From NCBI GenBank assembly GCA_050873585.1, contig JBNMJA010000002.1:1-55155 (forward strand): a DNA stretch of 55,155 nucleotides. The letters are read 5' to 3'. The notes beneath the pieces were generated by a model that saw only the letters and a program-made list of their open reading frames with translations, was not told the DNA's origin and made no database searches. Origin of the DNA: Bacillota bacterium (GTDB lineage: Bacteria; Bacillota; Clostridia; Christensenellales; CAG-917). Below, piece after piece: positions 3,524 through 54,893 of this stretch (the first letter of the stretch is position 1; each line of letters opens with the position of its first letter). The position numbers and the translations under genes were made by a program.

Positions 3524-3524
3524 G

Positions 3525-5680: not shown

Positions 5681-5756
5681 GATGGTTTTTTGCATTTTTT
5701 AGAATCGTTTTTTGACAAAAACAACCGATTTTTGATATTGATTTTAGACAAAACGT

Positions 5757-7523: not shown

Positions 7524-7534
7524 AAAACGCTCCT

Positions 7535-7820: not shown

Positions 7821-7826
7821 GACTTG

Positions 7827-7855
7827 ATTATATCACCCAAGCATTTGGCTGTCAA
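7827..7855 (-). promoter_or_regulatory. sigma-A promoter of the thrS leader
   Basis: Minus strand reads TTGACA (7855-7850), a 17-nt spacer, then TATAAT (7832-7827) with an extended -10 TG. Confidence 0.7.
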
Positions 7856-8000
7856 TTTATTTTGCAACTTAACTCTCAATTGCGCTCGCTTCGTCGATTT
7901 GACTTTCATTTCACCCCGATTAAAACGCAATGATTCGATTAATCGTAATTCTTTTTCGCTCTTGGAAATAATTCTAATACACTACCTAGATATAAGAAAA

Positions 8001-8031
8001 ACGACGATGCAAACGCGTCGTCGTTTTTTTT
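8001..8031. terminator. Intrinsic terminator hairpin after the zinc-ribbon membrane protein gene
   Basis: aaaaACGACGAtgcaaacgcgTCGTCGTttttttt: a 7-bp stem with A-runs and T-runs on both sides. Confidence 0.65.
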
Positions 8032-8039
8032 GATTGGTT

Positions 8040-31900: not shown

Positions 31901-34900
31901 GTGGGCAAATTGCTACGGCTGAGCACGTAATACTCAACCTCTTCACCGCTTGCATTTCTTGCTTTGAACGTCTTGTAAACGGTGTTGCCCTTTGCGTCTT
32001 GTTCAGTCACAAGGCCTGCTACGTAAGCGGGCATCAAGACGTACTTGTTGCCGTCCGCATTGACGTTTGCCTCTGCGCCCTTGTCAATCTCTTCTTGCGT
32101 GGGTTGCACGAGGATCTGATATCCGTTTTCGGACGGTGCGCCGCTTATCGGATTGATAACCGCGTGCAGCATATTGCCTTCGCTGTCCTTCAGATAAGTT
32201 CCGAACGTTGCTTTGCCTGTCGAGAACGAAATTTGGACAAGATTGGGCAGTTCTGCCATAAACTTGCTACTATCACTGTCGATGTCGATATTCAAAGCTT
32301 TGGTGCCGTAAGAACCGTCGTCGTTTCTATACAAGCCCTTGACGGATTGCACTTCTTTATCGTTGGTGACGTAAACCGGTATTGCATAAAGCACAGTGTT
32401 GAGTGCATAGCCGTAGACATAGCCCGCAAGACGTCTGCCTTTTTCGTCTGCCGTTTCGGAATTTGCCGCAGTCAAATCGACCGACGCGCCGTCCCAAACG
32501 ATGAACGTACCCGTTGCGTCTTGATATTGGCTTCCGGAGTTGTAAGACGTCATCTGTTTTCCGTCAATGATTATCGGGAATGTCACGGTTGCCTTTTGCG
32601 GGAAGAGCGTTTCATCGAGGAAGAAGCTATCTCTGAGCTCAAAGTCTTTTCTTGCACCGCCGGATATAGCGTAGCCTTTTCTTGTTGCAGGATCTTCAAT
32701 GACAATTTCCGTCGGAGGTTCAACGCCGATATTACCTGCGGATTCGGATTCGTCAAAATACAGCAATCCCGTCTTATAATCGGCGTGATTTATGCTATAC
32801 GGCGTAATGCGAAGCATAAAGAAGTCCCATGCATCCTTGACGTTGCTAGTCTGCTTGGTCGGACGTGTTGCGAAGTTAAAGTCGCCGGTTCCGCTTCCGA
32901 CTTTTTCGTTGTACAACATTTCGGTACCAATACCGTTCTTCTTGCCGTTGACCATAATTTCGATAGCCTGAATGCCGGGAGCAACGGTTTCACCGCTATT
33001 GCAACCATAATCAGATGCTGTCGGATTGATGTCAATGTAGATATTGATTGACGGATTGATCGTACCGCTTGCAAACGGAAGGGGAAGAATGCCGCCGATG
33101 AGTTTGGTCAAATTCTCCAAAGTATCACCGGCAAGTCTTTGGATAGTACCCCAAATACCATCCATATTGATTGCCGGACCGACAATGCATTCCATTGCCC
33201 ATTTGAGCAATGCAAACGGTATACTTCTCATATAAGGTTCTACGTAGTCAACCTTTTCTTGTGTGGTTGCGTTCTTTGCCAGCAACGTGTCTAATCCGTC
33301 GAAGAAAGCAGTGATCGGCTTTGTAGTAGTGCCATAAGGTTTATCCGATGGAGAAATGTTTGTCGCAGAACCGATATCTTTAACATTGACGAAATACACA
33401 TTGCTTCCGCTGGATTTACTATCGGCATTATTGTCTCCGTTGCGCATGAGATTCATAAGGATGCAGCTCACCATAATGATGAGTTCGTTATATGCATCTT
33501 TGTTGAGCTCAACCTTGAGAGAAATCTTTCCTGCGCCGTTGGACACTTCTTTTGCACCTGCAAAGTACGGCCAATATCCGTTGTTGTTGAAGAGATTTAC
33601 GTCAACGCTCTTGATGAGATTTTCAAGATTTGCCGGATATGAATACGATTCCTTCTTCACTGGATCGTTCCAACCACTGCTTGCTTGCGTTGAAGTATCA
33701 GCAGCAGTCTTTGCGGACGGATATTCATATGTTGCATCGTCGCCGTCAGTACCGCTTACGAGTTTAAGCGGGAATGCATCTGCCAACAGTGTTCCAAGAT
33801 CAAGGCATTTCAAATATGCGCCGATTGCTGGGATGCCCGAAACCAAATCGACAGTATTACCGCCAACTTTTATGTCAGACAAGAATACGTTGTTGCCACC
33901 GAAAATAACGTTCAGTCCTACCGTATCTTTTATTGAAGCACGATTTAATCCAAGTCCAAGCAAAAGTTTGTAGCTCTTGGCAGAAAGATTGCTTGCGTCT
34001 TCAACCAAGTTCGTTGCAGTATAATCTTTCTTACCAGACAAAGTTATAGTTGAATGTTCATAACCCGAATAAATCCTTGGAACACCTACAATACCTAACG
34101 ATACCCAGCCGGTATAAGCGCTCCAAACGGTATTTTGAATTTCGAGATTAAGACCGGGCTTGAGGTTGTCGATGACGTTTTGGATGAGCGACATAATGCC
34201 GGACGTCTTGGAGAACGTCAAGCCCGCATAACCTGTCTTCACCGATTCGATGAGTTTTTCGCTGTCAACCTTGCTTTGACCAAATCCGAGAGCGAAGTTC
34301 TTGATCGCAACGTTTGCGCCCGTGCCTACGCTGTCGAGTTGTGCGTTGAGGTTGATGGACTCAAGACCGCCTGCGCCGAGGTTGACGTCAAGTTTGACTG
34401 ACTTGATGGGCGGAAGCGTTATATCGCCGAGATCGAGGCCGATTATATCGATAAGCGTCGAAATGAACGCATTGTCGAAAGACATACCCAAACGTCCGTT
34501 TTCGATGTCGATTTGCAAATAGAGAGCCGAACCGCTTGCTGCGGCTTTTGCGTCTGCACTTGCGTCTGCATCGGATGTGGACGCGTCTGCGCTTGCGACT
34601 GCGTCGGAAGCGGTGCCCGCACCGTAACCCGGAGTTGCGCCGAGCAAGCCTGCGATACCTTGGAATTTGATCTTGCCAAGGCCCAAACCGCTTGCGTCGA
34701 TGTAAATTGCGTCGGAATAGATCTCGTCTTCAGTGTAAAGACCACTCGTGCCGACGCCAAGTTGCCACTTGTTGTCGTTGCCTTTCTTCATAAGTCTCGA
34801 AGAGCCGAGGTAGTATACACTGAGGATCGTGGAGTTGATCGGGTCGCCTGCCTTGATATCGACTGCGAGGTCGCTGAACAGGATACCGCCGATGCCGTAT

Positions 34901-37900
34901 GCGAGGATAGGCGCGATATTGATATTTGCGGCAATATCGATTGTGAGGTTGATAGCCTCGCTTGCCATAGTGATATTGACGTCTGCAAGAGTGTACTTGT
35001 AGTAATTCGTCTTGTTATCGTAAGACGTTCCCGTAAACACCTCGTATGCTCCTTCGGAATTCAAGATATACACTTTGCCGTCATGTACTTTGCCGTCGCT
35101 ATCTTTGAGCGTATTTGCGTCAACGAATGTCAATTCGGAGAACTTGCCTAATATGGATTGTCCTCCGAGGACGTTTGCAAGCAACTCTTGCACCCAGCCT
35201 GCCAACGATTCTTTGTAGCCTTCTTGTCCCGGTTTGAGATTCTTTGACGTCATTGTGAGATCGAGCGTCAAGGTCAAACCGATCGTGGGCAGATTGAGAT
35301 CGGAAATATTGAACGTTCCCGTTCCATTAACGAGTGCTTCGAGGTCAAGCGCAAGAATCTCGATATAGCCTGCCGGCACTGTTGCGTTCACAGACTTGTA
35401 GTAAGTCTTGCTGCCGTCAACTGCACCCTTGTCTTCTACATATTCGCCTTTTTCGTTCTTGACATACTTGGTTTGAGAAGCATCTTTTTCAAGCTCGGCT
35501 TGTGTAAGTTGCTTGAAGACTTTCTTGCTCGTCGTTACCAAGTCAAAGTGCGTTGCCACGGATTCGGAAATGTCTTTTGTGATGCTTGCCGCCGGGATAT
35601 CGAGGCAGAAGTACAAGCCGTCGCTCAATCTCAAGTTGAGACTGAACTCTGTCTTGCCGCCTGTTGCGTCCATTCTGAAGAGAATATCGCCGATATCGGG
35701 GAGCAGATCCTTCGTGGAATCGAGACCGCGGATCGCCATAATCTTTCTGTAGATTGCGTTGATGAGATCCGAGTTGAGTTGGAGCAAGAGTTTTTGCGGC
35801 GTGACGTTGATCATGAAGTACGCATAATCCTTCATCGTATCTATGATCGTGTCGATATCGCCACTGTTTGCTGTTTGTGCCTGAGTGGATTCTTCGCCGC
35901 TCGCTTCGCTCAAGAATTTGCCGAGAACGCCCTCGAGCAATCCGTCGAGATTGATATCGGTCACAGCGACTTTTGCGGTGTTGCCGAGGATTCCGCTGAG
36001 GTCAACGTAAATCGCGTTGTCGATGAGGTAGATTCCAAGAAGCGTTCTTGCCGCAGTTGCACCCGCCGTATATTTGTTGAGTTGCAAACCGAGATCTACT
36101 TTGAAGTTTTCAACATCGATATTTGCAACGAGATCGAGTTTGAGATATGCGCCTTTATCGTTGCCGAGTTCGTTGACGATGTTGAGTTTGAGCGTAGAAC
36201 CGCTGACCGCGCTATTGGGATTGATGAGTCCCATCACGAGGTCGAGGATTTCGCTCAAATCGATTTCGTTTGCAGAACCATCTTGCGGAGCACTGCCGTA
36301 CAACGAAATGTCAATCGACAATTCGAGATGTGCAGTTGCGTTTTGCAATCTGACATAATTACCGTATGCCGCTTTTTTCGCATAACGCGTGCCCGTATCG
36401 ACAGCAGTTGCAAGACGATAATCTTCGCCGTCTTTGACGTATTCGCCGTTTTCGGACTCAACGTATTCGTAACGAATTGTGCCGTCTGCGTTCTTATCGG
36501 CAAATTTCTCGTCTTTGTCTACGGAGAAGTCTTTGTTGACTCTTGCATAGATCTTGCCGAGAGAAATTGCAATTGCGAAGTCACCTTGCTTGAGGTATGC
36601 GCCCTTCGTTTCGGTTGCGGTGTGTTTGACAAACTCACCGTTTTCGTAATCGTAGGTATCGCCGCCCCATGCAGGGTATGCGTAAGCAACGAGAGCGTAA
36701 TCGTCAGTGGAAACGAGAACGTACGTATTGTCGTCGTCAGCACCCGTGCCTTGCGTGTATTCGCCGTTTGCATCTTTAACAAACTTCGTGCCGCTCCAAT
36801 TGCTGCCATTGAAGTACTTGCCGCTTGCGCCGTACATTGCGTTGAAGTTGGCAACGGTTTCGTAATAGAGCGTGCCGACCTTGAATCCGAGGTTGATATC
36901 GATGCTGGGCGAGTTGCCGTAGAAGTTGATCGTGATACCGCTCGTATCCTTGGTGTCGGTGGTGCGGAGTTTGGGCAGGAATTCTCCGATGCCTTGGAGA
37001 ATCTCGCTGTCACTGTCTGCAAGCATACCGATGAGGTCTGCAATGAGGGTTTCGTTGAGACCGACGGTGATAAAGTCGTTTGCGATGAGCAATCTGCCGA
37101 GCACGACGTTGAGAACACTCCAAATGTTTGCGGGAATCAAGCCGGTGTTGGCTTCTTCGTCGTCTGCAGCGGTGAACGCTTGTGCGGATGCGCTTGATGC
37201 GCTCGTGCCGAGGATGCTTGACAAATCAAGACCTTCCACTACTCCGTAGGAGAAGAAGTCGCCCCAACCGACGATGTCGCCGATTTGACTTGCGTCAATG
37301 TTGAGATAGAGTTTGCCGTCTCTGATTTCGACCCACAACAACGCCTTGGGCTTTTCTTCGCCGTGGAAGTTGGTTTCATAAGTCAACTCAAGGTAGATCT
37401 TTGCGCCTTCGAGGACTTGGAGAATTCCTACGCTCGTGTCGCCCGAAATCATCTTGACGAGATTTGCGAGTTGGAGATAGACCTTGAGGTCGAGGTTGAG
37501 ACCGATGAGACTCTGGAATTCCGCGTTGTTTTTCAAAGACGTCGCGATGAAGTAGAGATAATCGCAAATGGTCTTGTCGTTGATGAACTTGGTGAATTGA
37601 TACGTCCAGTTGATGACGTCGTCGAGAGTCGTTCTGATATCGAGATTCAATCCGAGTTCAACGCTTTGGAGTCCTGAAAGAACGCTTGACACGTCAAACG
37701 TACCGCCGCCGAGCAAATCGCCGAGATTGAGCGCAAGCGCTTTGGTGTAGTTGGTGAAGTCAATGACTTGCTTGTACACTTTGACGTTTGCGTGTGCTGT
37801 CTTAAATGCGTCCGCTTCGTCCATATCGGTATAACCGTTGCCGTTGGGGTCGATGCGGTAATACGTTTGTCCGTTATAAACGACTTCCTTGCCTGTGCCC

Positions 37901-46900: not shown

Positions 46901-49900
46901 TGACCTTCGATGTAGACCGCTATTATATTCTTAATTACTGTATCATTGTCGTTTAACGTAATCTCAAGAACGATATTAGTGTCGTTCGGCTCGTTGAGCG
47001 CAAGGTTTGCGCCGAGGCTGAGGCGAATATCGTATTCGATATCGTCGTACATATCGAGTCCGAGTTCGATTCCGAGATTTTCGATAAACAAATCAAGGTA
47101 ATTTTCAATGCGAATTTGTTCTTTTTGTCCCTTGATCTTGAGATCGAGTCCGAGATCGACGTTGAGTGAAAGCGTGTCGAGATTTTCGGCAGTCGTGTAG
47201 ATAGTCGAGTCGAAATCTTCGGGAAGCACTCCGCCCTCTTTGCCGAGAGCAAGATTGATTTCGCTTATTTCAAGACCGATATAAACGGGAGAAATCTCCG
47301 CATTGAGTTGGAGATTGTAATTATTCTTCCACGCAAGAGCAAGATAACTTCTGTCCGAATTGAGTTTGATGAACTTTTCGGGATCGACTTGCTTGCCTGC
47401 AAGCATTTGAACGAGCGTGACGATAAGCCCTTCCGCAAAATTGATTTGCACGCCTTCGGAGCCTACGCCGATATACCCGATGATTCCGCCGAGCACTGAG
47501 CCGATAATACCCATAAGGTCGATTCCGCCGCTCTCTTCCTCCGCCATAGTCGTTGCGCCTGCGTCGGAAGAATTGCCGCCGCTAATCAAGCCGCCGAGCA
47601 ATGCTCCGAGGTCGATATTTGCAAGTGCGACGTGGAAATCGTTGCTCAAATCGAGATAAACCGTGCTCACTGCATTGCCTTGAGCGTTTTCGCCCGTGCT
47701 TTGCAAACGAAGAGCAAGGATAACGTGTTGGATCTTGTCTTGATTGATCATTCCGTCGATATCGGCAATACTTCTGTTGTAAATTTCGATTGCGATATCG
47801 CTGTGGGACGCTATGTACGCAATATCGAGCAAACTTGCTTTGGTAAAGACTTTGTCGTTTGCAAATTGATTCGCGTTTTCGTCCGTGACGTTGACTTTGA
47901 CGTATGCGTCGTCAACGAGGATATAGCCTTCTCCTCTGTATGCGAGGTCGGTGACTTCGCTCAAAGCGATTCCGCCTGCGACGTATTGTTTGAGGTAAAC
48001 GTCGCCGACAAACTTCTTGTCGCTCGTCAAATCGCGCTCTTCGTCGTTAAGAAGAACGTATTTCGTGCCTTCGAGTTTGTAAACTTCGGCAAATCTTGCA
48101 AGATTTGCAAGTTCGGAGTTCGCATACTTCTTGAACACCGCGTTTTGCGTGAGATCAACGGGGACGTCGGGATTGAGGCGCGCGTTGAGTGCGATGCGGA
48201 ATCCGATTTCCGCACCCGCTTCGACGGGAACGCTGTAGGTGAGAAGAAGTTGTCTGATGAACGAGTTGAGTTGCGGATTGCTTTCGTCAAGGAAAGATGC
48301 TATCCATTCGCCGACTGTCCAGGACGTGTTGCCTTGGTGTGCGCCGACGCTGAAAGTGCCCTTGACTTCCGCATAAATGCTTGGGATCGTGATATCGCCG
48401 TAGTCGTTGAAGAGGGTGATGTTTTCGTACACGTCCTCGTCTTCGCTGGTGACGTATTGAGCCATCGTCTGCTCTGCTTTTCCGTCACGCACGATCTTGA
48501 TAGACTCGATTGTGCTACCGCCGATGGTAAGCTCGAGCGGATTGAGCGTTGCGCCGTCTGCGCCCTTAACGGTCGTGCCGATATAGATTTCCGCACCTGC
48601 GATTTTTTGTCCTTCGTCGGTGTTGATGTCAACGGCAACTCTCAAGGGTTTGTTGTCGAATTTGTCTTTTACGCTTGCCCATGCAAGTTGCGCCCATGCC
48701 GTGATGTCGCTTGCGTCGATGCCGATGACCTGATACACGATATCCGTCAAGCCTTTTGCGATCTGCAACTTGACGTTGTCGGAAGAGAGCGTTGCGATAA
48801 TATCGAGAGCAAGTGCTCTTCTGGCAGCCGTATCGTCCTCACCCGTTACCGCAGCAGTCAATGCGTCCGCCGTTGCCGTGCCGTTGACGGAAACAGTGGT
48901 GTCTTTGACGAGCATGGAAAGAATGAGTTCATAAAGATCGATTTCGGTCTGAATCTTTCCGAGTCCGAAATTGCTTGCGTCGAGATAAAGCACGCCCGAA
49001 GTATAGTAAATTCCGAGCAAGACTTTGCGATCGAGTCCGAATTTTTTGCCCGTGAGCTCGACGAGCAACTCGCTGTGGTTGTTTTTGGTGTTGATTTGCG
49101 TCTCTTTGAAGAGCAAATATTTCAAAATCGGAGAAATATCGAGTTGTCCCGCAACGCGCAACTCGTAATTGATATCCATTTCCGAGTCGAATGCGAGAGT
49201 CGCTTTTGTTATATTCTCTTCAATAAAGTTTCCGTTTGAATCTTTATAATAGAGTGCGCCCGTGTACGTTGAAGGAACGGGTGTCTTTTCGATTTCTATA
49301 TATTCGCCGTTTTCGTTGAGCCAATATTTGCCTTCACCGAACACGAGTTCTCTCGAACCTTGGTCTGCGGTAAAATCGATGCCGAGCGTAAGATCGAGCC
49401 CTACGAACGGATATTCCAAAATCTCGGTGAAATCGTCCTTTTGAAGGTTGTCGTTTTCAAGATAATCGGTCGGTTTGTCGTTCAACCCTGCGGACAAGCC
49501 GTTGAGCGACAAATCAAGGCTGACGTTGTTGCCCAAAGAAAGGAATATGCCGAGTTGGAAGTCGGGCAAATAGAGACCGTCGTTGAGCGCAATGCGGATT
49601 CCGCCGTCAAAATCGGTGCTTGCAAACTTGATCTTAACGTTGTTTTGCACTTCGCGATAGTCGTTGAAGAAGTCGTTGCGATAGTACTCTTTTCCGCCGA
49701 ACGCTTTGTACGGAGTGAGAATTTCGGTCTTTACGTATTTTCCGGTTGCGATATTGAACCAATACGCGCCGTTGTCTGTCGCATTGTACTCGCCGCTGCC
49801 GCTGTCGTAAGAATAATACTTGCCGCTCTTTGCGTAATTCTCGGGTGCGGCTTGCGCGTTCTTTGCGACGTATTGTTTCGTTTCGATATCAAACCAATAT

Positions 49901-52900
49901 TCGCCGTCGGCATTCTCTTCACCCAAATAATACTTGCCGCTCTTTGCGTAATTCTCGGGTGCGGCTTGCGTGCTTTTTGCGATGTATTGTTTCGTTTCGA
50001 TATCAAACCAATATTCGCCGTCGGCATTTTCTTCACCAGAATAATACTTGCCGCTCTTTGCATAGTTTTCGGGTGCGGCTTTCTCACTTGTCGCAACATA
50101 TGCGCCCGTTGCAACGTCATACCAGTGCGTGCCGGTTGCTTCGGTGGCTTCGATATAACCGTTGTTTTCCTCGTTAAACGTGTAGAACTTGCCACTCTTT
50201 GTGTAATTCTCGGGTGCGGCTTGTGCGCTTTTTGCTATATATGCACCCGTTGCGATGTCGTACCAGTGCGTACCGCTTGCAGCAACGGATAACGTATAGA
50301 ATTTTCCGCTCTGCGTATAGCCTTTGGGTGCGGTTTGCGCGCCTTTTGCTATATATGCATCCGTCGCGATGTCATACCAGTGCGTACCGTTTGTCGCGGT
50401 GGATAACGTGTAGAATTTGCCCGATTTCAGATAGAATTCGTCACTATTTCTGCTCGTATCGGCAAAGGAAACGTAGTCGCCGTTCGGAGCGAGCCAATAA
50501 GTTTGGTCATAACTGAGTCCGATAATGTTGAGAACTTTGTCGAAAAGTCCGGATGCAAGCATGACCTCGAAGGCGTGGTTGCCGAGATTGAAACCGTCGA
50601 TTATTCCCGCCACGAAGCCGAGAATCGAGTTGACGTCGAGTCCGCCTTCTTCGTCAGACGTCGGGTCATCTGCAACTGCCGCTTCTTGAGCGTCGTTTTG
50701 AGAGCCGTCGCCGCCCACTCCGAGCATGTCGAGCAATTCTTTGGCGTCGAGTTTGATCTCTTTGACGCTGATGCAAAGCAAATCTGCTTTCAGGTATACC
50801 CAACCGTCTTGCAAGTAGATTGCAAGAAGAGGATTATTGCCCTCGACGTCCGCTCTTCTGGTGATTGCAATCTTTGCAGAAGATTTGAGGAGAATATCGA
50901 GGATTGCGCTCGTGTCAAGACCGCCCGTAAGGTCGATGTCTGCGTTGACGTCGAGTTTAAGTCCGCCTTCGATATTGCCAAGTTCGAGCAATACGTTGAC
51001 GAGAACGCCTTTGAACAAATTGCCGAGTTCCTGATCGGGAAGATCAACGGAAATTTCCGCAAGTTTGCCCTTGAGCGTGTCTATATCGATCGAAAGACCC
51101 GTCGAGAGATTGACGTGGAGCAAATCCGTGTTGAGCGTGCCGTTCTTGAGAATAGGCAGGTATGCGCCCGGATTGTCCGCAAGATCTTGTTCGAGATCGG
51201 TGAAATTCTTGTCAAATTGACCTTGATTGATGATTTTACCGAAGGTAACGTCGACGCCGAGTTCGAGTCCGATCAACGGATCGAGCGTGAAGTCGGTGTG
51301 CGTTTCGTTGTATTCGCGAATTCCGAGCGTTGCGTCCAACTTGATTGATTTCTCTTGTTGTGCGCCCTTGTTCGTATAGGTCAGGCTTGCTTCGGAAATG
51401 GGGATATCCGCACCGATATTGTCGCCTGTGAACACCATTCCGAAGATGGTTTCGAGCAAATCTCTGGTGATATCGAATTGGATACCGTTGATGTTGAATA
51501 TGTTTTCGTCCATATCGATATTGATATGGTCGAGTATCGTGCTTACGAGTGCCAACACGTCAACGCTTCCGTCGTCGTCGGCAGATTCAAACGCGCCGTG
51601 TTGAATGATAAGTTCGCCGTTGTCGACGAGCGCTTGTTGGATCGCTTGCGCTTTCATACCGTCGGCAAAATAATCGCGTGCCGCTTGAGAAGTCGCGTCG
51701 CCTTTGAGTCCGTCGATTGCACCCTTTATCGTGTCGAAAAGTTGATCGATGAGATCGCCGAGCAATTGATTGACATTGATATCGTCGATCTTGAACTTCG
51801 TTCCGTTAGAGCCGAGCAAACCGCTTGCGTCGATATAAACGCCGTTCAAACTGCCCTTATAAAGCGCGCTGAGACGTTCTCTGTTGTCTCTGCCGAGAAC
51901 TCTGACGGCAAGTTTGGTTTCCCCCGGGTTTCTGGTGTTGATTTCTCCCTGGAGGGTAATCGTAAGTTGAACGACGCCGCTTGCAAAGTCGATTTCTTTT
52001 GCAAACAACGGTTGAAGCGCCGCAAGCAATTCGGCGTCGAGATTTTGTTTGAGGAGGTTTGAAATGAGCGTGCCGAAAGAATCCACCACGTTGTCGATGG
52101 ACACTTTCTTTTGCGCAAAGTCGAGTGAGAGAGTTATTGCGCCGTCAAGCGTGAGGAAGGAATATTGCTGTGCGGTTTCAATGGCTTCGAGCAAAGTTTT
52201 ACCGTCGGATCCGGTACGCTCTGCGAGAATACCCTTGACGTCGAGATCGGGCGTGCCTGCGAATTCGGCTTTCGCATAGCCCAAATCGATACCGAATTCG
52301 GATTGGAACGTGCCGTACTTTTCTTGGATATCGGGAATTCCGCTCGAATTGAGGTTTACGTCAATGCTGAAATTGGTTTCTTTGAGCGCCCCGTTGTAAA
52401 TGTCCGCTTCGAGATAAAGCGCAACGCCTGCCAAAGCACCGATTTTGCCAAGATCGAGTCCGAGCACGTCTTTGACGAGCCCGATAATATTTTCGGGAAT
52501 AAGACCTTGGACAAACGGAATGAGCGTCACGATAAGTCCGAGATCACAAGGAATACGCAAAACCTGACGACCGTTACCGTAGTCCACGAGCGTGCTCTTG
52601 CTTGATCCGAACAGTATGTTGACGAGCAATTCTTCAACCGTCAAATGGGCTATGTCGATTTTGATCAGACTGTTGACAAGTCCGCCGATATCGTAACCCA
52701 TAATGGTGTCGTAAAGGATTGAGGAAAGATTGAGTTGTTCGAGCGCGTCGGAAAATCTCGTCACGAAACTGCTCATATTGATGGTGTCCGTGTACACGAC
52801 GTGGACGCCGTCGCCTTTCTTGATTCCGCGCATATCTGCAACGAGTTTGCCGTCATAATAGTATGCGCCGAAAAGCATCGAGCCTTTTCCCGCCTTCGCC

Positions 52901-53322
52901 ATATCCGTGATGGTCTGACGATCGAGAGTACGACCTGCGATTTCGTCTTTTCCTAATTTCCAGAATTCAACGAGGATTTGACTGTTTGCGTCGTTGACTC
53001 TGTCAATCTTGCCCGCAAAACGAGCAACGATAAGCGAATCGTAAGAATCCTTGGCAAATCCGAGCACGAACGCCGTATCGACGTTTATGTACTGTTTGTC
53101 CTTTTCCGCACCGGCTTCCAAAAGCGCTGCGTCTTTGAACAACTTCCATGCGTCTTGCGGTCCTATGTACTGCGAATTCGTCGGTTCGTCGTCGGGCGTC
53201 GGCGTAGGAATAACCGGATTGTCGACGTTTCCGCCGCCTGCATGATCGCACGCCACCATGCCGAAAACCATCGTGATAATCAGCACGAGCAACAATACGA
53301 GCGATAACTTTCTCATTCTCAT
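25951..53322 (-). CDS. Giant (~9,120 aa) secreted or lipid-anchored modular surface protein of unknown family
   Basis: A single open frame of 27.4 kb. ATG 53322 has GGAGGAG 5 nt upstream. The N-terminus MRMRKLSLVLLLVLIITMVFGMVAC is signal-peptide or lipobox-like. The track's TTG at 53415 coincides with the -35 box. A consensus promoter lies upstream and a terminator downstream. See the findings for internal architecture. Confidence 0.9.
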   Translation of the reverse strand: MRMRKLSLVLLLVLIITMVFGMVACDHAGGGNVDNPVIPTPTPDDEPTNSQYIGPQDAWKLFKDAALLEAGAEKDKQYINVDTAFVLGFAKDSYDSLIVARFAGKIDRVNDANSQILVEFWKLGKDEIAGRTLDRQTITDMAKAGKGSMLFGAYYYDGKLVADMRGIKKGDGVHVVYTDTINMSSFVTRFSDALEQLNLSSILYDTIMGYDIGGLVNSLIKIDIAHLTVEELLVNILFGSSKSTLVDYGNGRQVLRIPCDLGLIVTLIPFVQGLIPENIIGLVKDVLGLDLGKIGALAGVALYLEADIYNGALKETNFSIDVNLNSSGIPDIQEKYGTFQSEFGIDLGYAKAEFAGTPDLDVKGILAERTGSDGKTLLEAIETAQQYSFLTLDGAITLSLDFAQKKVSIDNVVDSFGTLISNLLKQNLDAELLAALQPLFAKEIDFASGVVQLTITLQGEINTRNPGETKLAVRVLGRDNRERLSALYKGSLNGVYIDASGLLGSNGTKFKIDDINVNQLLGDLIDQLFDTIKGAIDGLKGDATSQAARDYFADGMKAQAIQQALVDNGELIIQHGAFESADDDGSVDVLALVSTILDHINIDMDENIFNINGIQFDITRDLLETIFGMVFTGDNIGADIPISEASLTYTNKGAQQEKSIKLDATLGIREYNETHTDFTLDPLIGLELGVDVTFGKIINQGQFDKNFTDLEQDLADNPGAYLPILKNGTLNTDLLHVNLSTGLSIDIDTLKGKLAEISVDLPDQELGNLFKGVLVNVLLELGNIEGGLKLDVNADIDLTGGLDTSAILDILLKSSAKIAITRRADVEGNNPLLAIYLQDGWVYLKADLLCISVKEIKLDAKELLDMLGVGGDGSQNDAQEAAVADDPTSDEEGGLDVNSILGFVAGIIDGFNLGNHAFEVMLASGLFDKVLNIIGLSYDQTYWLAPNGDYVSFADTSRNSDEFYLKSGKFYTLSTATNGTHWYDIATDAYIAKGAQTAPKGYTQSGKFYTLSVAASGTHWYDIATGAYIAKSAQAAPENYTKSGKFYTFNEENNGYIEATEATGTHWYDVATGAYVATSEKAAPENYAKSGKYYSGEENADGEYWFDIETKQYIAKSTQAAPENYAKSGKYYLGEENADGEYWFDIETKQYVAKNAQAAPENYAKSGKYYSYDSGSGEYNATDNGAYWFNIATGKYVKTEILTPYKAFGGKEYYRNDFFNDYREVQNNVKIKFASTDFDGGIRIALNDGLYLPDFQLGIFLSLGNNVSLDLSLNGLSAGLNDKPTDYLENDNLQKDDFTEILEYPFVGLDLTLGIDFTADQGSRELVFGEGKYWLNENGEYIEIEKTPVPSTYTGALYYKDSNGNFIEENITKATLAFDSEMDINYELRVAGQLDISPILKYLLFKETQINTKNNHSELLVELTGKKFGLDRKVLLGIYYTSGVLYLDASNFGLGKIQTEIDLYELILSMLVKDTTVSVNGTATADALTAAVTGEDDTAARRALALDIIATLSSDNVKLQIAKGLTDIVYQVIGIDASDITAWAQLAWASVKDKFDNKPLRVAVDINTDEGQKIAGAEIYIGTTVKGADGATLNPLELTIGGSTIESIKIVRDGKAEQTMAQYVTSEDEDVYENITLFNDYGDITIPSIYAEVKGTFSVGAHQGNTSWTVGEWIASFLDESNPQLNSFIRQLLLTYSVPVEAGAEIGFRIALNARLNPDVPVDLTQNAVFKKYANSELANLARFAEVYKLEGTKYVLLNDEERDLTSDKKFVGDVYLKQYVAGGIALSEVTDLAYRGEGYILVDDAYVKVNVTDENANQFANDKVFTKASLLDIAYIASHSDIAIEIYNRSIADIDGMINQDKIQHVILALRLQSTGENAQGNAVSTVYLDLSNDFHVALANIDLGALLGGLISGGNSSDAGATTMAEEESGGIDLMGIIGSVLGGIIGYIGVGSEGVQINFAEGLIVTLVQMLAGKQVDPEKFIKLNSDRSYLALAWKNNYNLQLNAEISPVYIGLEISEINLALGKEGGVLPEDFDSTIYTTAENLDTLSLNVDLGLDLKIKGQKEQIRIENYLDLFIENLGIELGLDMYDDIEYDIRLSLGANLALNEPNDTNIVLEITLNDNDTVIKNIIAVYIEGQNIYFDFGDLGREPFYLEKTNISEFVCDAIVKLLGDIKSQTNNSEASTASDESTLSADEQMQVVLNIADGKLSALVMQNVLVGLIATLTSNGDGDLKIDEILEKLDLDIQVGVDLQLDPSISLDVNLDSNLIALGVSLGNIDVATGKNENGAYGTIKNKARKGIDKFVKLSETEKDTYKGDRYNLVGGKYVKADGGEYRSYYKGLQEAHIIALDLSLIVDYYASATYVLVTDKKALESFSPQDRYSLNYDGRFVQDNNGSYIRDGFAFDELLNLVLGMDGLQDILATMLPQIRINTDNEEIGFEIEKDKFSVGDLLKRLGLNLMLSDKMDDGFKLDVKARLNLQAMGLEDISKIDLGNLDVNTILKGLEASVGIDFDYEHEQSKAYLNIYLLNGDVYVDLDGVGGPRVQVGLLELLGRLGVELGGSSDASTADDTTGAGGLDVAKLLNTVVSKLVLSAAPWKADSNINKIGYLGVFLRANFINDLFSMLFNEEVNSENTVLDEAQSGIYLYPQTDELFKGYLDNALALQLKLALANKKDPIKDERGNTKPFTFDLKLGVDVKVGLESVNDYQTLLDNDERLEFISLDDYIANILALIGGFRGENYQRETELADNAIYYTFNESEGGEYLLKTGMYRKPNFNVDANGAFVLDEATGEYRLIREGEVLEEGTKRYSKEDLTGVTMYARSYATVQTSAEDGKQYAYYVNYVQSEDDDAVYVYDAQNDIYVNRNDANAPQSTVFYKRVLEAMTVTEKDAEGNVITRNALAKEVKLYKKCGQETYQDQNISLSVSGLIYFNSASAEVVNAGGLLPNAFRDMIINLQTLSAFNAGIGLRVSANIDLAALDLQGLASGGSFGEFIDNSDLSKVELAIQFIEVDSQGYFAKYDTAKGTRDGNDKVLGGMYLSGGTFYLDLTGVVGTAENYSKIENFVDFAKKVIEKLGSIGGDKENNGAQTASDEQVLRSATRDAVVLLAYSDAQFQIQITKALIAFVLATFMPDLGSLEEVFDVFNVSLGVDLGQPVYKSLTDLKNSENIEDQDLYNKFMTDEAYKQSRYAYYETEDLSGTVATDKYYVVGGKYYQAATTDVYEVTVDEATGTVKPIDGAVKTRYADGKLPADKTFGVYLNGAYTVITGTVDGKYVHSNANYYAKVAGIDDPISLRSYRMYRMDANGNESVTDTYIAGDTYVRYNGEERDIQELRSRLFGYVKDENGDWYRTINLYSSMSDFYLGLDVAIGCVNMGLKLGGIELGVGAGNNLLPAYIRDGKAHSRVEGGKEIEYTDELTEADKEKYEDIPTNMFYDTIITVGFSVELELGITEGTLDFGKILSSVVGDLTGVVVEMPSTTKGYSSAHFRLDVSLMVDIYDLTKSELKIELINVTETGYESLWLGAYYVNNTIYLNLEEAFNIQKVAIGGLNIAELLKDIIIDFDDEELFVAGNRAKDASTDEASVAADANGSDISLSDKELALSMLINKDLFTLKLGDKLFDTILEYIPEDLLGFDIKDLFYQEINGGLQVELDTSDSINLSVDVALGLDGDRYNKDSDYSESTAASIAEKVKKGTDKYYVFRQSNDGEYVKESAGSNFVRAIKPDDSSEIKVASNRYDKYLVKCDESTNKLYLLKVLANGKGDGSELLDTMKRSMLEGEEKSVAVYKHVAGAAANKSYVKDGGKYDTTLKLSLAIKNLDIAFTNSRTYVLSGDELAEYTNMDDVDRFTLSETIDITTQFKTGEDNDIDLSAVLQAFFPSLTDDQLLVIKAQSDKGGDIDRSLQLVVDVDVQVAALLNFMRTELVKYAGDDDQFDGDMDLFTVIDLLKKVIENIDTTQLAKLIADIASYVNLSVRLQTKGGNDSDYHDMLGIYMVGGTFTLLDESKGELDENSENYVDPSERFDHYFETKNGSYYRDTNGKYSYIRSSEYSGTRYSYDSSYCYKNVEGRYKRENGGLFIDLSYFNIPSLRVDANEIRKLVSGLLALNASDAMTADDTTDDGSGSGISLPLVKDDTILGYIRTFAYGLQITSRYIKVLAQADYINSILSLVMGENAIQFDDDEFVNQPNVTLYTDNTRYSYTSAQDIVNEFITKYDAAIDESERKALVKDIEKTLTKSKYLFKVTQYTGEGAQNKGIYYKAADGAFVQKSEMSETERTAKDNEVISGKAKYYDVTRVDVYIRLQDGNPVSDKNAVLYADATQTQINNCEKVAVLQDRRVRVPKLYEKIGENNYQAVDFKYSVVTPLEARNEFLSVNLYLWNHKVSIAINAPEIGVTKFQYVTGKDALNDSKYQIEEIAAGARYVNTDEEIYTSVDKVTDGIDNWAFDYYEKGTFSTTKYQDNPRFYEYKDKYIEINPDTLFVKDGDGKYQKATADWDHMPDFIGEMENDSSKEYYIDATSAYVRVQRVFIYKKEVYNTEKKVLLSADDEANDTDFFIKVQQNSSVEKPDFSKPEYADYAYKEYVDTDNLYYISLALRGSLFLQSGKIYLPYADYAEVYKSIRNVEPTFDLIKSKGIAYKKFQGDYVKVSEKDDLATLNNANGLFVLVNSDLDDKYSGINEALGDVLGSILGAMTGKFQIAEDMTFNVYFSLRLNLGFKLYILPSFGIDIRDLDVAIDVWGEQNDLLDDNTGKNYVTSEDRDANNYKYKLLDGTKPHILGIYYDNDQDTGKAGLYVDAEALLGKDAKLFVDMSEYSLEDVLTGLVANIGSNDAADASVASDPVADNNPDKQDPDAASLFINIFTNAIALNVTSGFAKVLLNELIADSASITSMLPNLKVYLKQNLNPYDITIGAILFNERGDIPVLNLGLNIQGLNGVADESSSIEFGRKEDILNMQQGSNAIFYYANFYRDNDNKDYSNYYGKNYNNKDYVKLIHDETTGFDYIENADGTRGALYSNGTTTVGPEDRYMKAAPVMSEVLTSRQTAYDGKLYTDVDGIYMLVYERLNDIAGNNHLGEEYSEYRNLVSNNQFRSFTGTLYTVDDNGNFVRVNKDELQGFTGEGNLQYVLASDYPSANGNEKGTGKEVVYNGQTYYRIDPNGNGYTDMDEADAFKTAHANVKVYKQVIDFTNYTKALALNLGDLLGGGTFDVSSVLSGLQSVELGLNLDIRTTLDDVINWTYQFTKFINDKTICDYLYFIATSLKNNAEFQSLIGLNLDLKVYLQLANLVKMISGDTSVGILQVLEGAKIYLELTYETNFHGEEKPKALLWVEIRDGKLYLNIDASQIGDIVGWGDFFSYGVVEGLDLSSILGTSASSASAQAFTAADDEEANTGLIPANIWSVLNVVLGRLLIANDFITVGLNETLIADLIGMLADSDSEILQGIGEFLPKLRTTDTKDTSGITINFYGNSPSIDINLGFKVGTLYYETVANFNAMYGASGKYFNGSNWSGTKFVKDANGEYTQGTGADDDNTYVLVSTDDYALVAYAYPAWGGDTYDYENGEFVKHTATETKGAYLKQGDFAIAISLGKIYARVNKDFSVDKDEKFADKNADGTIRYEYVESENGEYVKDGEDYRLATAVDTGTRYAKKAAYGNYVRLQNATAHLELSIDISLYGSAPQDGSANEIDLSEILDLVMGLINPNSAVSGSTLKLNIVNELGNDKGAYLKLDLVANIDVENFKVDLGLQLNKYTAGATAARTLLGIYLIDNAIYVDLSGILGNTAKVAVTDINLDGLLEGVLGKFLSEASGEESTQAQTANSGDIDTIIDTMKDYAYFMINVTPQKLLLQLNSDLINAIYRKIMAIRGLDSTKDLLPDIGDILFRMDATGGKTEFSLNLRLSDGLYFCLDIPAASITKDISESVATHFDLVTTSKKVFKQLTQAELEKDASQTKYVKNEKGEYVEDKGAVDGSKTYYKSVNATVPAGYIEILALDLEALVNGTGTFNISDLNLPTIGLTLTLDLTMTSKNLKPGQEGYKESLAGWVQELLANVLGGQSILGKFSELTFVDANTLKDSDGKVHDGKVYILNSEGAYEVFTGTSYDNKTNYYKYTLADVNITMASEAINLTIDIAANINIAPILAYGIGGILFSDLAVDIKAGDPINSTILSVYYLGSSRLMKKGNDNKWQLGVGTSGLYTEDEIYSDAIYIDASGLGLGKIKFQGIAGLLGATPGYGAGTASDAVASADASTSDADASADAKAAASGSALYLQIDIENGRLGMSFDNAFISTLIDIIGLDLGDITLPPIKSVKLDVNLGAGGLESINLNAQLDSVGTGANVAIKNFALGFGQSKVDSEKLIESVKTGYAGLTFSKTSGIMSLIQNVIDNLKPGLNLEIQNTVWSAYTGWVSLGIVGVPRIYSGYEHSTITLSGKKDYTATNLVEDASNLSAKSYKLLLGLGLNRASIKDTVGLNVIFGGNNVFLSDIKVGGNTVDLVSGIPAIGAYLKCLDLGTLLADAFPLKLVSGTDGDDATYEYPSAKTAADTSTQASSGWNDPVKKESYSYPANLENLIKSVDVNLFNNNGYWPYFAGAKEVSNGAGKISLKVELNKDAYNELIIMVSCILMNLMRNGDNNADSKSSGSNVYFVNVKDIGSATNISPSDKPYGTTTKPITAFFDGLDTLLAKNATTQEKVDYVEPYMRSIPFALLKWAMECIVGPAINMDGIWGTIQRLAGDTLENLTKLIGGILPLPFASGTINPSINIYIDINPTASDYGCNSGETVAPGIQAIEIMVNGKKNGIGTEMLYNEKVGSGTGDFNFATRPTKQTSNVKDAWDFFMLRITPYSINHADYKTGLLYFDESESAGNIGVEPPTEIVIEDPATRKGYAISGGARKDFELRDSFFLDETLFPQKATVTFPIIIDGKQMTSYNSGSQYQDATGTFIVWDGASVDLTAANSETADEKGRRLAGYVYGYALNTVLYAIPVYVTNDKEVQSVKGLYRNDDGSYGTKALNIDIDSDSSKFMAELPNLVQISFSTGKATFGTYLKDSEGNMLHAVINPISGAPSENGYQILVQPTQEEIDKGAEANVNADGNKYVLMPAYVAGLVTEQDAKGNTVYKTFKARNASGEEVEYYVLSRSNLPTGKQFPAGTIDWNTDEFTYDWQGSTSWNTDSESNSVKVGFTYQWGLGKAVNGSIELSAKNYKISHLTQMMKAHANGEIDTASAEKFTNARDNDGNYSTVLELKAMDINADTQKLVEYVNQFKFINSKNVAGKNMNGYDVEWDLTELEKALDAIAHRNDNGDIVGYDYYKGVDVTVKAKVGGQRFSISTTVTKKTLGEDKSGFVGQQKTYTGKLAQEVNVRIVVKPFVYDSMSKAITFDQYSYDRITVASLGSNFALNVKDASGNKSEEKMTVGNGLKVEAPFIKAGETYYDAYNNGVHNLTSDEITYEGYTNQRTYPLYAKLTIGTDYSGKQVVYIPIEVSALKPTTLAVNVDHEDTLDPTWYENENYQSFSVSFGTATHTMFPDWSTVKYYTNAACTKLKAEQNIFDGGTIYAQVEAYATLDGTKDGKKLALVNSGKSDENGNAIYTAQTITLKLSVEKQTVKSVNFFYNEDIGDVAAYVRANADDQAKLDILKEALANVNNYKGTVYQQTHEIDGVAYGIDPINFAKNPSDYFKTSNWGDAIDGTPVLVTLDKGEPYIAYVQSFDGIVSSASIEGVEKTAYMTIGGQMVSFRINMPDYTFADGKFVDGESKLTATGGKVAGVGEDTIQLSYNVFDEWKLPSTAKVTASEGKGETEVEVKWIDYSAPNKEELNGRDYVERKYFFFDGLSIRYPSADAFTARIYVSGYNSSVDVKPDGMYDSDGKLKAYDVFDKFTFATTANVKIGETTHNNVPLHWLDTSMPTAEEIANGSFTRKAYVTGQSANGETVVKDFTFKINNEFTLDGIAGDSKNGFSVDIDADHFYGGLIKSTTLNVNDKKISVALAWSDDYTAAGFDGNMTLTISSDALTSDVTAKVKVASAGIEKLVGGEKYVLDPYGIKSTLFESGSKQLVKVKSADADKTVQDQLVTVEYDFGDEDFYANISQYFGKKYTVGVRYRYNAGKNENVETGEITVTVLNRSIMYMSDYENRSIVVDTFLHKDASYLANVMSITTVGGDVFDARFDWSDVDKLIKSGASNTAYMATAVVPVEKANGTYVLADIGNGEDYVTIEDYLEFMRKTDANFELKTETRYMLAKQRINVPVTVLERTIVDAELKLDDTGLKYLYSDSSKYSTITDTLVGESGDGRYIDIVYNKATGMPEQYVYYNHFAYVGADKLPDTMTLTFANGDVGNYYITYENAPKASDLADLSATLERTMTVHVWNSESKEVMDAFEMTIKIRVSKVTLTNSDLAYKEMSVGTYKYNKDVYVDRDSDTSVFNTAKYASEATYYVGAQFVSAYAWWNEGRTANGSGYDYTSTYLKRHGFTDTDGEIYPGIYSVYGGFATESDYAHVKFYVYNADTKNYVLFDGDVNTIDATTFKTADGQDLYLFTYVTTQTFDVKWNAEKAEYTYRGGNVAVEATLASRAQGNVTGTTVDVTVHIANSRLTGEAKLVEGDTYALYKNGIFEIDPYANGNVFARKTGYSGDRYEKSSVATSGYVKNNLDGTYKLVNGEYVELTTAELNRDYANFPTSLKVTLANGTKVDVPVVWDFSGVNVTYAGGEYYAYAIVNYGGEYNYKASDASSVNEIGTQRIRFTVKVLDRSVESIVSDSELQKLTGYALATDKTYINPYEYIKPTMPDSLKFKERTGKIVDGKAETAEVEYKTKGTSRLLVWSFDEFRPKYTGGVIYVTAKLIGVDGNVQEYKIPFLVKRMIVNKLEEATTGKDADGNTLLTKVSGGYSTTVENSVAASPFGIDPNNPKRLTMPFSYIATFSVSTPEFDAATGNIKVGEDGKEVYNAIANETLEFYYAIVSMPADEQYTVSADGITTSASGRNAIVQLADQERVTVGITQINGNVTPVAPAASSLRSGKTLKTTYTVGSVTVNVVWFGKAYVSTASTTNPTLEASYDVMFSSTSGTFTLPTSSDRKIVYKLYAAIGTVVDNNGTVLTTTTADADWKNGSDVIIAAGKTIPQYQAVTGMVEI
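25954..32613 (-). other. C-terminal ~2,200-aa region of the giant protein: array of beta-sandwich (bacterial Ig-like) units
   Basis: At least 12 recurrences of a strand motif end in Trp: TFIVWDG, GTIDWNT, YDVEWDL, MFPDWST, VEVKWID, VPLHWLD, VALAWSD, ARFDWSD, FDVKWNA, VPVVWDF, LLVWSFD, VNVVWFG. They are spaced about 80-250 aa apart. Confidence 0.5.
49681..50499 (-). repeat. In-frame tandem repeat array (about 7 units of 38-49 aa, 114-bp core period) inside the giant gene
   Basis: Units read SGK[FY]Y....G.[HY]W[YF][DN]I[AE]T..Y[IV]AK..QAAPENY[AT]K. The two central 114-bp units (about 49825-49938 and 49939-50052) differ at only about 8 positions by eye. Confidence 0.85.
53248..53322 (-). other. 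Signal peptide with lipobox-like cleavage site (…FGMVA|C) of the giant protein
   Basis: The n-region is MRMRK, the 18-residue hydrophobic core is LSLVLLLVLIITMVFGMV, and A-C follows. The -3 position is Met, not the canonical Leu/Val/Ile, so type II cleavage is only probable. Confidence 0.6.
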
Positions 53323-53386
53323 AATCTCCTCCGAAACATACGCCTCTACGCGTGTAGCGCATATGTGTAGATTATTATACAGTCCA

Positions 53387-53415
53387 ATTATACGTTTTTT
53401 TTCGCTGTTTGTCAA
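53387..53415 (-). promoter_or_regulatory. Perfect consensus sigma-A promoter of the giant gene
   Basis: Minus strand reads TTGACA (53415-53410), a 17-nt spacer (aacagcgaaaaaaaacg), then TATAAT (53392-53387). A second TTGACA lies at 53426-53421 and a second TATAAT at 53379-53374. Confidence 0.75.
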
Positions 53416-53837: not shown

Positions 53838-54893
53838 ATGCAAACGACCGTACAAAAAAATCCCCTTATCGCAGAGGACGTAAAAATCACTCTCGCACCA
53901 AGGCATAAACGCAACAGAATCTGGGAAATCGACTTTCTCAGAGGCGTTTGCGTATTGCTGATGATTCTCGATCATCTGGCAATTTTGCTCGGGTCGTATT
54001 TCGGTCCGCAATGGTACGGTTACGGGTTCGTTCGTAGAGGCGTCGGCGACGCTTTCACGACGTTTTGTTACAATTGGATAAACGGAAGCGCAAGCGATGT
54101 ACGCGACGTAATCCACCCAATCGTTTTGTTCGTGTTTTTCTCAATTTCGGGCATATCCTGCACCTTTTCACGCAACAATGCAAAACGCGGATTACAACTG
54201 TTGATAGTCGCCTTGATTTATACGCTAGGCTCGTATATCGCGCAAGAATATATGGGAATAAGCGGCGTTTTCGTGGCATTCGGCGTGCTGGATTTTCTTG
54301 CGGTATCGATGCTTATCTACGCCCTCGTTTCCTTCTTAACAAGGGACAACCGATGGACAATGGTCGGCGCAAGCATAGCACTTATAACGGTGACCTTATG
54401 CCTGTATTTTTGCTATACTCCGCCCGCAACGACGCCCAAGATCTTCGCGATAGTGTTCCCTCCCCACGATTTTTGGGGCAATCCGTCGCTGTTTTACTCT
54501 CACGCCGAATTCTCCCCCGGGGATTTGTTTACGCTCATCCCCTACACCGCTTTTTATTTTGCAGGCGTGCTTATCGGCGAGTTGTTCTATTACGAAAGGC
54601 TATCTCTCGTTCGCTTCGAACTCACGAAAGCACTCTACAAAAAGACATGCGACGCCCTTTATGCAAACGTTGAAGCGGAGAATGTATCGCTGCGAAACTT
54701 CTGCACGAATACGCTCACGTTTTTGCTCGGAGCAGGAAAAGTTGCGACTATAGTCGCAAAAGCAATAGAAAAAGCGGTTTGCTTCTTTGGCAAACACGCC
54801 TTGATAGTTTACGTCGTTCACGTTGTCTTGCTTGCCGCGCTGTTGAGTCTGATAAGCGGCTTGTTTATCACACCGGGCAATTTCGGCATTTAG
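53838..54893 (+). CDS. DUF1624 / heparan-alpha-glucosaminide N-acetyltransferase-like (acyltransferase-3-related) integral membrane protein
   Basis: 351 aa. RIWEIDFLRGVCVLLMILDH is the N-terminal signature, and about 9-10 TM helices follow. Confidence 0.75.
   Translation: MQTTVQKNPLIAEDVKITLAPRHKRNRIWEIDFLRGVCVLLMILDHLAILLGSYFGPQWYGYGFVRRGVGDAFTTFCYNWINGSASDVRDVIHPIVLFVFFSISGISCTFSRNNAKRGLQLLIVALIYTLGSYIAQEYMGISGVFVAFGVLDFLAVSMLIYALVSFLTRDNRWTMVGASIALITVTLCLYFCYTPPATTPKIFAIVFPPHDFWGNPSLFYSHAEFSPGDLFTLIPYTAFYFAGVLIGELFYYERLSLVRFELTKALYKKTCDALYANVEAENVSLRNFCTNTLTFLLGAGKVATIVAKAIEKAVCFFGKHALIVYVVHVVLLAALLSLISGLFITPGNFGI

Follow-up and report, generated by a model that had tools for sequence, protein, structure and literature searches.

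The giant surface proteins of Gram-positive bacteria, among them Ebh of Staphylococcus aureus, the "periscope" proteins SasG/Aap, and Giant1-5 of Apilactobacillus kunkeei (PMC12863079), are secreted and anchored chains of tandem domains that reach megadalton size and have a probable terminal binding region. Repeating beta-groove (RBG) proteins are built differently, in that a chorein-N domain feeds 6-17 repeats, each with five antiparallel strands and a loop, to form one continuous taco-shaped groove (PMC12066543). Membership in this second group is recognized by a chorein-N or AsmA-type domain at the N-terminus, which leads into the groove (PMC12066543, PMC6791001). Here we describe a gene for a protein of approximately 1 megadalton (MDa) that is found in a 55,155-nucleotide stretch of DNA (the window; contig JBNMJA010000002.1 of assembly GCA_050873585.1) from a human-gut Bacillota bacterium of the order Christensenellales (Clostridia). 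Its product is a predicted lipoprotein composed almost wholly of a previously undescribed domain that lacks a counterpart in Pfam, NCBIfam, or the PDB, and it represents an uncharacterized, order-wide family. An earlier sequence-only reading had compared the protein with AsmA/TamB/VPS13-type lipid conduits and with beta-solenoid fibres. With moderate confidence, we favor a segmented surface fibre or stalk that carries a beta-rich C-terminal region and is not a lipid conduit.

The sequence-only reading drew attention to a short hairpin motif that recurs along the protein, and all 16 peptide strings that it quoted sit exactly at the minus-strand positions it gave, within one uninterrupted open reading frame (ORF) of 9,154 codons (positions 25951-53415, minus strand). 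As listed, this ORF opens with TTG, 33 codons upstream of Met34 (positions 53316-53415, minus strand), and orthologues begin with MRKLKFA... at the equivalent Met. Residue numbers given here count from the TTG, and the coordinates of all features are collected in Table 1. The same gene is called intact in two independent assemblies from different samples, with a product of 9,111 amino acids (aa). The possibility of an assembly or frameshift artefact was therefore rejected. The start chosen by public gene callers, which yields the 9,111-aa product, would clip off the signal peptide.

This signal peptide reads MRKLSLVLLLVLIITMVFGMVA followed by the lipobox Cys. Nearly all of the related giants that have an N-terminus open with a lipoprotein signal as well, and carry equivalents of the L-x-[AG]-C lipobox, whose terminal Cys was taken to define a lipoprotein. 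From its lipobox, the giant is predicted to be a membrane-anchored lipoprotein. This signal, together with relatives in Christensenellales and Clostridia, bears out the earlier description of the protein as a lipoprotein of a Clostridia-like organism.

The recurring motif marks a genuine internal repeat. Thirteen hairpin regions align in register across approximately 130-180 residues, in the order of hairpin, short strand and helix, acidic low-complexity linker, second helix, strand, and third helix. The flanks that had been noted for the motif, namely alternating strands before it and a K..I.L..LL segment, an acidic linker, and a GGLDV..IL helix after it, are in register in 13 copies, and the spacing of the hairpins is irregular, as had also been noted (248-787 aa by our measurement). 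When copies were left out of the profile one at a time, the omitted copy scored 2.6-34 bits, with at least 9 bits for 9 of the 12 copies that were reported; when the whole protein was locally shuffled 20 times, the best result was 2.9 bits. The highest of these values belongs to module 13, which is closest to the consensus, and module 12 gave no reportable match in this leave-one-out test. Module 1, which was the first and weakest instance in the sequence-only reading, scores 0.4 bits with a profile made from the window protein only. A family-wide profile finds 13 complete modules and this partial N-terminal one, in keeping with the claim of about 14 deeply diverged modules. The module cores in Table 1 were delimited by using the alignment, the leave-one-out profiles, and the family-wide profile.

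A profile made from the orthologues of one domain matches the paralogous domains over their full length, with scores of 30-88 bits. The repeat unit is therefore the whole of approximately 250 aa, and not the hairpin alone. From the family, 460 linker-to-linker units were extracted; the median spacing between linkers is 313 aa, and the 5th percentile is 253 aa. In the window protein, successive linker alanines are as much as 723 aa apart, and the excess length is due at least partly to Tyr-rich insertions. The hairpin itself is split in module 10 by a 72-aa Tyr-rich insertion (aa 4037-4108) and in module 14 by a 31-aa insertion. All 13 linkers of the window protein contain the motif [AE]-A-x-[TS]-A-[DAE]-[DE], whose second Ala is conserved in 75% of 672 module copies of the family. 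This motif may mark a processing site, provide a context for glycosylation, or reflect a requirement of packing.

One complete linker-to-linker domain, the shortest copy (aa 1962-2214), was modelled with AlphaFold2 by using a 47-sequence alignment, in which 46 orthologous and paralogous domains were added. The model has a mean predicted local distance difference test (pLDDT) score of 83.4 and a predicted template-modelling (pTM) score of 0.69. A 474-aa segment with two hairpins, modelled with 27 orthologues, has a pLDDT of 62 and a pTM of 0.50, with values of 70-86 in the strands and below 45 in the acidic linkers. The rise in pLDDT from 62 to 83 on cutting at the linkers indicates that the domain boundaries lie at the linkers and that the modules are autonomous. 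The linkers between modules are acidic, comprise 15-40 aa, and are modelled as disordered.

In order, the domain consists of an N-terminal amphipathic helix, approximately 11 antiparallel strands, two short amphipathic helices, the hairpin LLGIYY-x-G-x-LYIDLSG, and a long C-terminal amphipathic helix. The helices of the model span its residues 6-17, 36-45, 143-150, and 232-251 (the 20-residue C-terminal helix), and the strands span residues 18-24, 27-32, 63-67, 73-80, 83-96, 120-133, 165-178, 186-195, 198-209, 212-216, and 225-227. Strands 198-209 and 212-216 form the conserved hairpin, and the loop between strands 83-96 and 120-133 is poorly modelled. In both models, DSSP assigns strands of 10-14 residues joined by 2-residue turns, which correspond to antiparallel hairpins, as well as helices. 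When 332 domain copies were subjected to mean-field direct-coupling analysis, local couplings induced by gaps prevailed, and no usable contacts emerged. We are confident in proposing this alpha/beta domain as a candidate new fold and a candidate new family for Pfam.

The strands had been described as strictly amphipathic. At the level of the family this is true, because strand columns over 332 aligned domain copies alternate between approximately 90% and approximately 10% hydrophobic occupancy. However, the modules are not alone in showing this alternation. The modules contain 71 alternating runs, versus 46.5 +/- 6.6 in shuffled sequences, and the C-terminal region contains 44, versus 19.9 +/- 3.9. 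Because the enrichment in the C-terminal region is at least as strong as that in the modules, the alternation represents a general signature of beta-sheets packed on one side, and not a hallmark of lipid grooves. The four helices of each module are amphipathic as well (35-60% hydrophobic positions at i, i+3/4, i+7). In the simplest reading, the helices would cover the hydrophobic face of the sheet within the same module.

The repeat segment makes up the N-terminal two thirds of the giant and is strongly acidic, with 952 Asp and Glu residues versus 536 Lys and Arg residues. The C-terminal region is rich in Thr, Val, and Tyr, is of beta type, and is collinear with its homologues. No module copies occur in this region, and no LPXTG motif or transmembrane segment is present at its end. 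The sole Pfam match of the entire protein is a single Big_4 domain (bacterial Ig-like group 4) in this region, whose score exceeds the Pfam cut-off (gathering threshold) of 22.1 bits. An iterative search of the C-terminal region for further Big_4-like copies found none. Comparison of the region with PDB sequences revealed no relative, and its C-terminal homologues also have no Pfam match.

When 1.84 billion representatives were searched exhaustively with a profile, homologues were detected in 144 clusters at E<=1e-3 and in 27 clusters at E<=1e-30. Many homologues comprise 6,500-7,900 aa and have 13-16 module matches. BLAST alignments show that they are collinear with the window protein over its whole length, with 25-44% identity. 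This full-length collinearity implies that the modules are ancient, position-specific orthologues. A recent expansion of the repeat was therefore rejected, as the copies are only about 20% identical to one another and are position-specifically orthologous across the family. The architecture of a lipobox, 13-16 modules, and a beta-rich C-terminal region of approximately 2,800 aa is conserved in proteins of 6,500-9,100 aa.

A scan of GTDB species representatives with a 10-sequence alignment found 35 loci, almost all in metagenome-assembled genomes (MAGs) from the gut that are assigned to Christensenella, Christensenellales, Clostridiales, or Clostridia. One locus is on a complete 1.65-Mb chromosome (CP091723.1), and the giant gene occupies approximately 1.5% of such a genome. 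Some of the MAG records that carry the family (loci L002, L005, L024, L026, and L029) bear the title "uncultured Bacteroides sp." or "Bacteroidaceae bacterium", which looks like mis-assigned taxonomy in view of their Clostridia-type neighbouring genes. Contigs with close relatives of the gene downstream of the giant are largely from human-gut metagenomes. Where database names are given to the homologues, they read "hypothetical protein", and a literature search found no paper that ties Christensenellales to giant genes.

The C-terminal 1,500 aa of the giant diverge far faster than the neighbouring SPFH protein in the same genomes. Where the SPFH proteins share 97% identity, the giant C-termini share 89%, and the corresponding values in other comparisons are 93% versus 64%, 86% versus 46%, and 70% versus 32%. 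Such fast divergence is as expected if the giant is an exposed surface protein, for which it would be typical.

Known families and folds do not account for the modules. Scans with Pfam and NCBIfam gave no match of any sort in aa 1-6300, and hence none to the Chorein_N, AsmA, or TamB (DUF490) families. When 47 separate domain copies were scanned at E<=1, no consistent Pfam family emerged. In searches of PDB sequences, the module profile found nothing, and the domain profile gave chance-level matches only (best E 0.16). With the domain model of pLDDT 83, Foldseek matches in the PDB have a best E of 0.14 and template-modelling (TM) scores of at most 0.26, and a structure search of BFVD found nothing similar (best E 0.13).

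In the surface fibre or stalk that we favor, the N-terminal lipid would tether the giant to the outside of the cytoplasmic membrane. The modules would be self-contained beads, each with its own helices over the hydrophobic face of its sheet, and the flexible, polyanionic linkers would string these beads into a long segmented stalk. Because the lipobox is at the N-terminus and the C-terminus lacks an anchor, the modules would sit near the membrane, with the C-terminal region at the distal end. The stalk would hold this region, of Ig-like or beta-sandwich type, well away from the cell. As a surface fibre, the giant is likely to serve in attachment or aggregation, or conceivably as an organizer or scaffold of the outer envelope layer reported for Christensenella. 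The predicted export signal and anchor, the modelled autonomy of at least 13 homologous domains, and the distinct C-terminal region with a Big_4 domain are the features expected of a giant stalk-type protein. In this respect, the long repetitive fibre of the earlier proposal is a reasonable picture.

The giant resembles the Gram-positive giant surface proteins in its megadalton size, in its rapid divergence relative to neighbouring genes, and in being, as predicted, a secreted and anchored chain of tandem domains with a probable terminal binding region. In contrast to those proteins, its domain is unrelated to the FIVAR-GA, G5-E, Ig-like, and beta-solenoid domains of their stalks, and its anchor is an N-terminal lipid instead of an LPXTG motif or a C-terminal transmembrane segment. 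Also, its copies are ancient (approximately 20% identity), position-specific, and fixed at 13-16, and not recent, homogenized, or variable in number, and its linkers are long and acidic and have a conserved Ala.

Several observations weigh against a simple stalk. The conserved number and position-specific orthology of the modules are unlike the variable numbers of repeats in adhesin stalks, and this hints at a more specific function. The proposed burial of the hydrophobic face relies on sequence patterns and on the autonomy of the domains, and, by a rough estimate of area, four helices would cover only about half of a flat 11-stranded sheet. Because the helices may leave part of the face uncovered, it is possible that each module retains a hydrophobic cavity. 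Moreover, apolipoprotein B-100, lipovitellin, and BamA, which have large amphipathic beta-sheets that bind lipid or sit in membranes, are among the highest TM-scores listed by Foldseek (0.23-0.26, all with E>2).

These points lead to a different possibility, in which each module resembles a TULIP, LolA, or START domain in being a semi-closed hydrophobic cavity with a curved sheet wrapped around helices, and the array at the cell surface binds hydrophobic molecules, such as fatty acids, bile acids, sterols, or lipid-linked precursors, or hands them over. We regard such a ligand-binding array as unlikely. It would fit the one-face-hydrophobic sheet, the 10-14-residue strands, the amphipathic helices that by our own estimate are probably too few to cover the whole face, and the conserved membrane acyltransferase gene that adjoins the giant gene. 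TULIP/BPI, LolA/LprG, and START proteins also pack amphipathic helices against the hydrophobic, concave face of an antiparallel beta-meander, as the window domain may do, and Foldseek gives weak matches to SPLUNC1, Takeout, juvenile-hormone-binding protein, PRELID1, ORP3, lipovitellin, and apolipoprotein B. However, the matches to lipid binders are all non-significant (E>=1, TM<=0.26; TM<=0.17 for the TULIP/BPI, LolA/LprG, and START families), and no sequence or profile similarity links the domain to any lipid-binding family. To our knowledge, nothing comparable to an array of 14 such units in tandem occurs in the TULIP/BPI, LolA/LprG, and START families. It is improbable that the modules, singly or stacked, provide hydrophobic cavities or a segmented groove that holds lipids or other hydrophobic molecules or passes them from the cytoplasmic membrane to the unconventional, non-lipopolysaccharide (non-LPS) outer layer of Gram-negative-staining Christensenellales. 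If true, such an envelope bridge or tether would be of non-AsmA type and would have evolved independently, in a lineage whose classical outer-membrane machinery has been lost.

The linkers permit another interpretation, in which their motif is a processing site and the giant is a polyprotein precursor that is cut into about 14 subunits, which assemble into a non-LPS outer layer. The sole strongly conserved residue of the linkers is an Ala that is preceded two positions earlier by a small or aliphatic residue and is followed by an acidic one, which is reminiscent of the -3/-1 rules of peptidases, and the motif is found in every linker of the window protein. Christensenella minuta is reported to have an outer layer of uncharacterized composition (PMC11448272). 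However, the motif is weak beyond the Ala, whose conservation is explained equally well by packing, glycosylation, or anchoring of the alignment, and the conserved neighbourhood that was examined contains no protease gene. We consider this interpretation quite unlikely.

The RBG conduit that the sequence-only reading had proposed, in which the modules would join into one open hydrophobic channel that carries lipids outward from the membrane, appears very unlikely. The giant does share runs of amphipathic antiparallel strands with loops over thousands of residues, an N-terminal membrane anchor, and an expected elongated shape with AsmA-like and BLTP proteins (TamB, YhdP, VPS13, ATG2, and BLTP1-3). 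The strands of each module group as 5 and 5-6, with poorly modelled loops between them, which is numerically compatible with two RBG units, and the host order includes members that stain Gram-negative and have outer layers (PMC11448272). However, the N-terminus consists of a lipoprotein signal followed by module-like sequence, and not of a chorein-N or AsmA-type domain, and the anchor of AsmA-like and BLTP proteins is a transmembrane helix. In addition to the lack of Pfam and NCBIfam matches in the module region, no TamB, VPS13, ATG2, BLTP, or Lpt entry is among the 50 Foldseek PDB matches listed, and hhalign of the 47-sequence domain profile against Escherichia coli TamB gave a probability of 0.15%, which is a weak test with its single-sequence template. 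The two halves of the domain have no detectable kinship by hhalign (0.44%). The modules are autonomous, disordered acidic linkers break the chain at every module, and the four amphipathic helices of each module may cover the hydrophobic face of its sheet. At the far end, the C-terminal region is beta-rich with a Big_4 domain and does not resemble a membrane-docking domain. The destination of such a conduit is also questionable: C. minuta stains Gram-negative and has at least one outer layer at its surface, but lacks lpxABCD, lptA, ompH, and bamA (PMC11448272). Without these genes for outer-membrane biogenesis, a classical lipid bridge between membranes would have no obvious destination and no second membrane to feed.

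A parallel beta-helix fibre, the other fold suggested in the sequence-only reading, has almost no chance of being correct. The general impression of repetitive amphipathic strands is what speaks for it, but both models contain long antiparallel hairpins of 10-14-residue strands and helices in place of short-period parallel coils of about 18-30 residues, and beta-helices are absent from the Pfam matches and from the Foldseek matches listed.

In the human gut microbiota, Christensenellales rank with the members that are most heritable and most associated with health, and their envelope is poorly understood. In the sampled Christensenellales-type MAGs, a lipoprotein of approximately 1 MDa is conserved, with conserved neighbours on both sides, despite a small genome (1.65 Mb for CP091723.1). 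The giant is likely to have a major part in determining how these cells construct their surface or adhere to partners. Its analysis also illustrates that amphipathic strands across thousands of residues do not, by themselves, indicate a bridge-like lipid transporter.

Table 1. Features of the giant gene and its neighbours in the window. Positions are those of the window, and residues are numbered from the first codon of the ORF as listed.
Feature	Position	Strand	Residues (aa)	Linker Ala (codon)	Remarks
Giant lipoprotein gene	25954..53316	-			ATG at aa 34 is the probable true start; product of 9,121 aa
Lipoprotein signal peptide	53248..53316	-	34-56		Predicted; lipobox Cys is aa 56
Module core 1	52765..53022	-	132-217		Partial; hairpin FGAYYYDGKLVADM; lacks linker motif; found with family-wide profile
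Module core 2	51460..51972	-	482-652	579 (51679-51681)	Hairpin, helix, acidic linker, helix
Module core 3	50440..50979	-	813-992	915 (50671-50673)	
Tyr-rich tandem repeats	49636..50463	-	985-1260		About six units of about 42 aa, between linkers 915 and 1521
Module core 4	48607..49194	-	1408-1603	1521 (48853-48855)	
Module core 5	47278..47829	-	1863-2046	1958 (47542-47544)	
Complete linker-to-linker domain	46774..47532	-	1962-2214		Shortest copy; modelled
Module core 6	46519..47058	-	2120-2299	2220 (46756-46758)	
Module core 7	45358..45933	-	2495-2686	2603 (45607-45609)	
Module core 8	43849..44442	-	2992-3189	3125 (44041-44043)	
Module core 9	42325..42861	-	3519-3697	3620 (42556-42558)	
Module core 10	40708..41514	-	3968-4236	4148 (40972-40974)	
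Module core 11	38596..39225	-	4731-4940	4871 (38803-38805)	
Module core 12	36925..37506	-	5304-5497	5417 (37165-37167)	
Module core 13	35653..36168	-	5750-5921	5846 (35878-35880)	
Module core 14	34342..34956	-	6154-6358	6276 (34588-34590)	
C-terminal region	25954..34218	-	6400-9154		About 2,750 aa
Big_4 domain	27193..27360	-	about 8686-8741		Pfam, 25 bits, E 1.4e-5
SPFH (Band_7_1) protein	24554..25669	-			Pfam; zinc-ribbon tail; directly downstream of giant gene
Integral-membrane acyltransferase (HGSNAT_cat / Acyl_transf_3)	53838..54893	+			Pfam; divergent from giant gene

The Tyr/Trp-rich repeats of about 42 aa match one another with an E of 1e-31 and have the consensus SGK[FY]Y...G..[WY][YF]D[IV].T..Y[IV]AK...AAPENY.K. 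This tandem array is largely missing from the closest homologues, in which it corresponds to an alignment gap at positions of about 967-1260 of the window protein. Other modules contain scattered insertions of a similar Tyr-rich, hairpin-like kind. The repeats have the flavor of cell-wall- or glycan-binding repeats, yet have no Pfam match.

The acyltransferase gene is adjacent to the giant gene and divergent from it in 33 of the 35 related genome loci, with 40-75% identity, and the encoded protein has no SGNH domain. The acyltransferase may be a functional partner of the giant that, for example, acylates an extracytoplasmic glycan; equally, the arrangement may be inherited synteny. On the other side, the C-terminus of the giant is encoded immediately upstream of the SPFH gene in 38 metagenome loci. 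Proteins with a zinc ribbon or double zinc ribbon are encoded at three places in the window (8040-9749, 23464-24534, and 24554-25669, all on the minus strand), of which the latter two are directly downstream of the giant gene. The surrounding genes represent chromosomal housekeeping functions and include those for MetRS, ThrRS, KsgA, IMPDH, and TrmO. According to Rfam, no riboswitch (for example, for c-di-GMP) or other element lies upstream of the giant gene, and no riboswitch occurs anywhere in the window. Long plus-strand ORFs of up to 1,768 aa lie opposite the giant gene (27583-52062, including 41239-46545). These are most likely shadow ORFs that result from biased composition, as the AT skew along the gene is -0.15 to -0.25.

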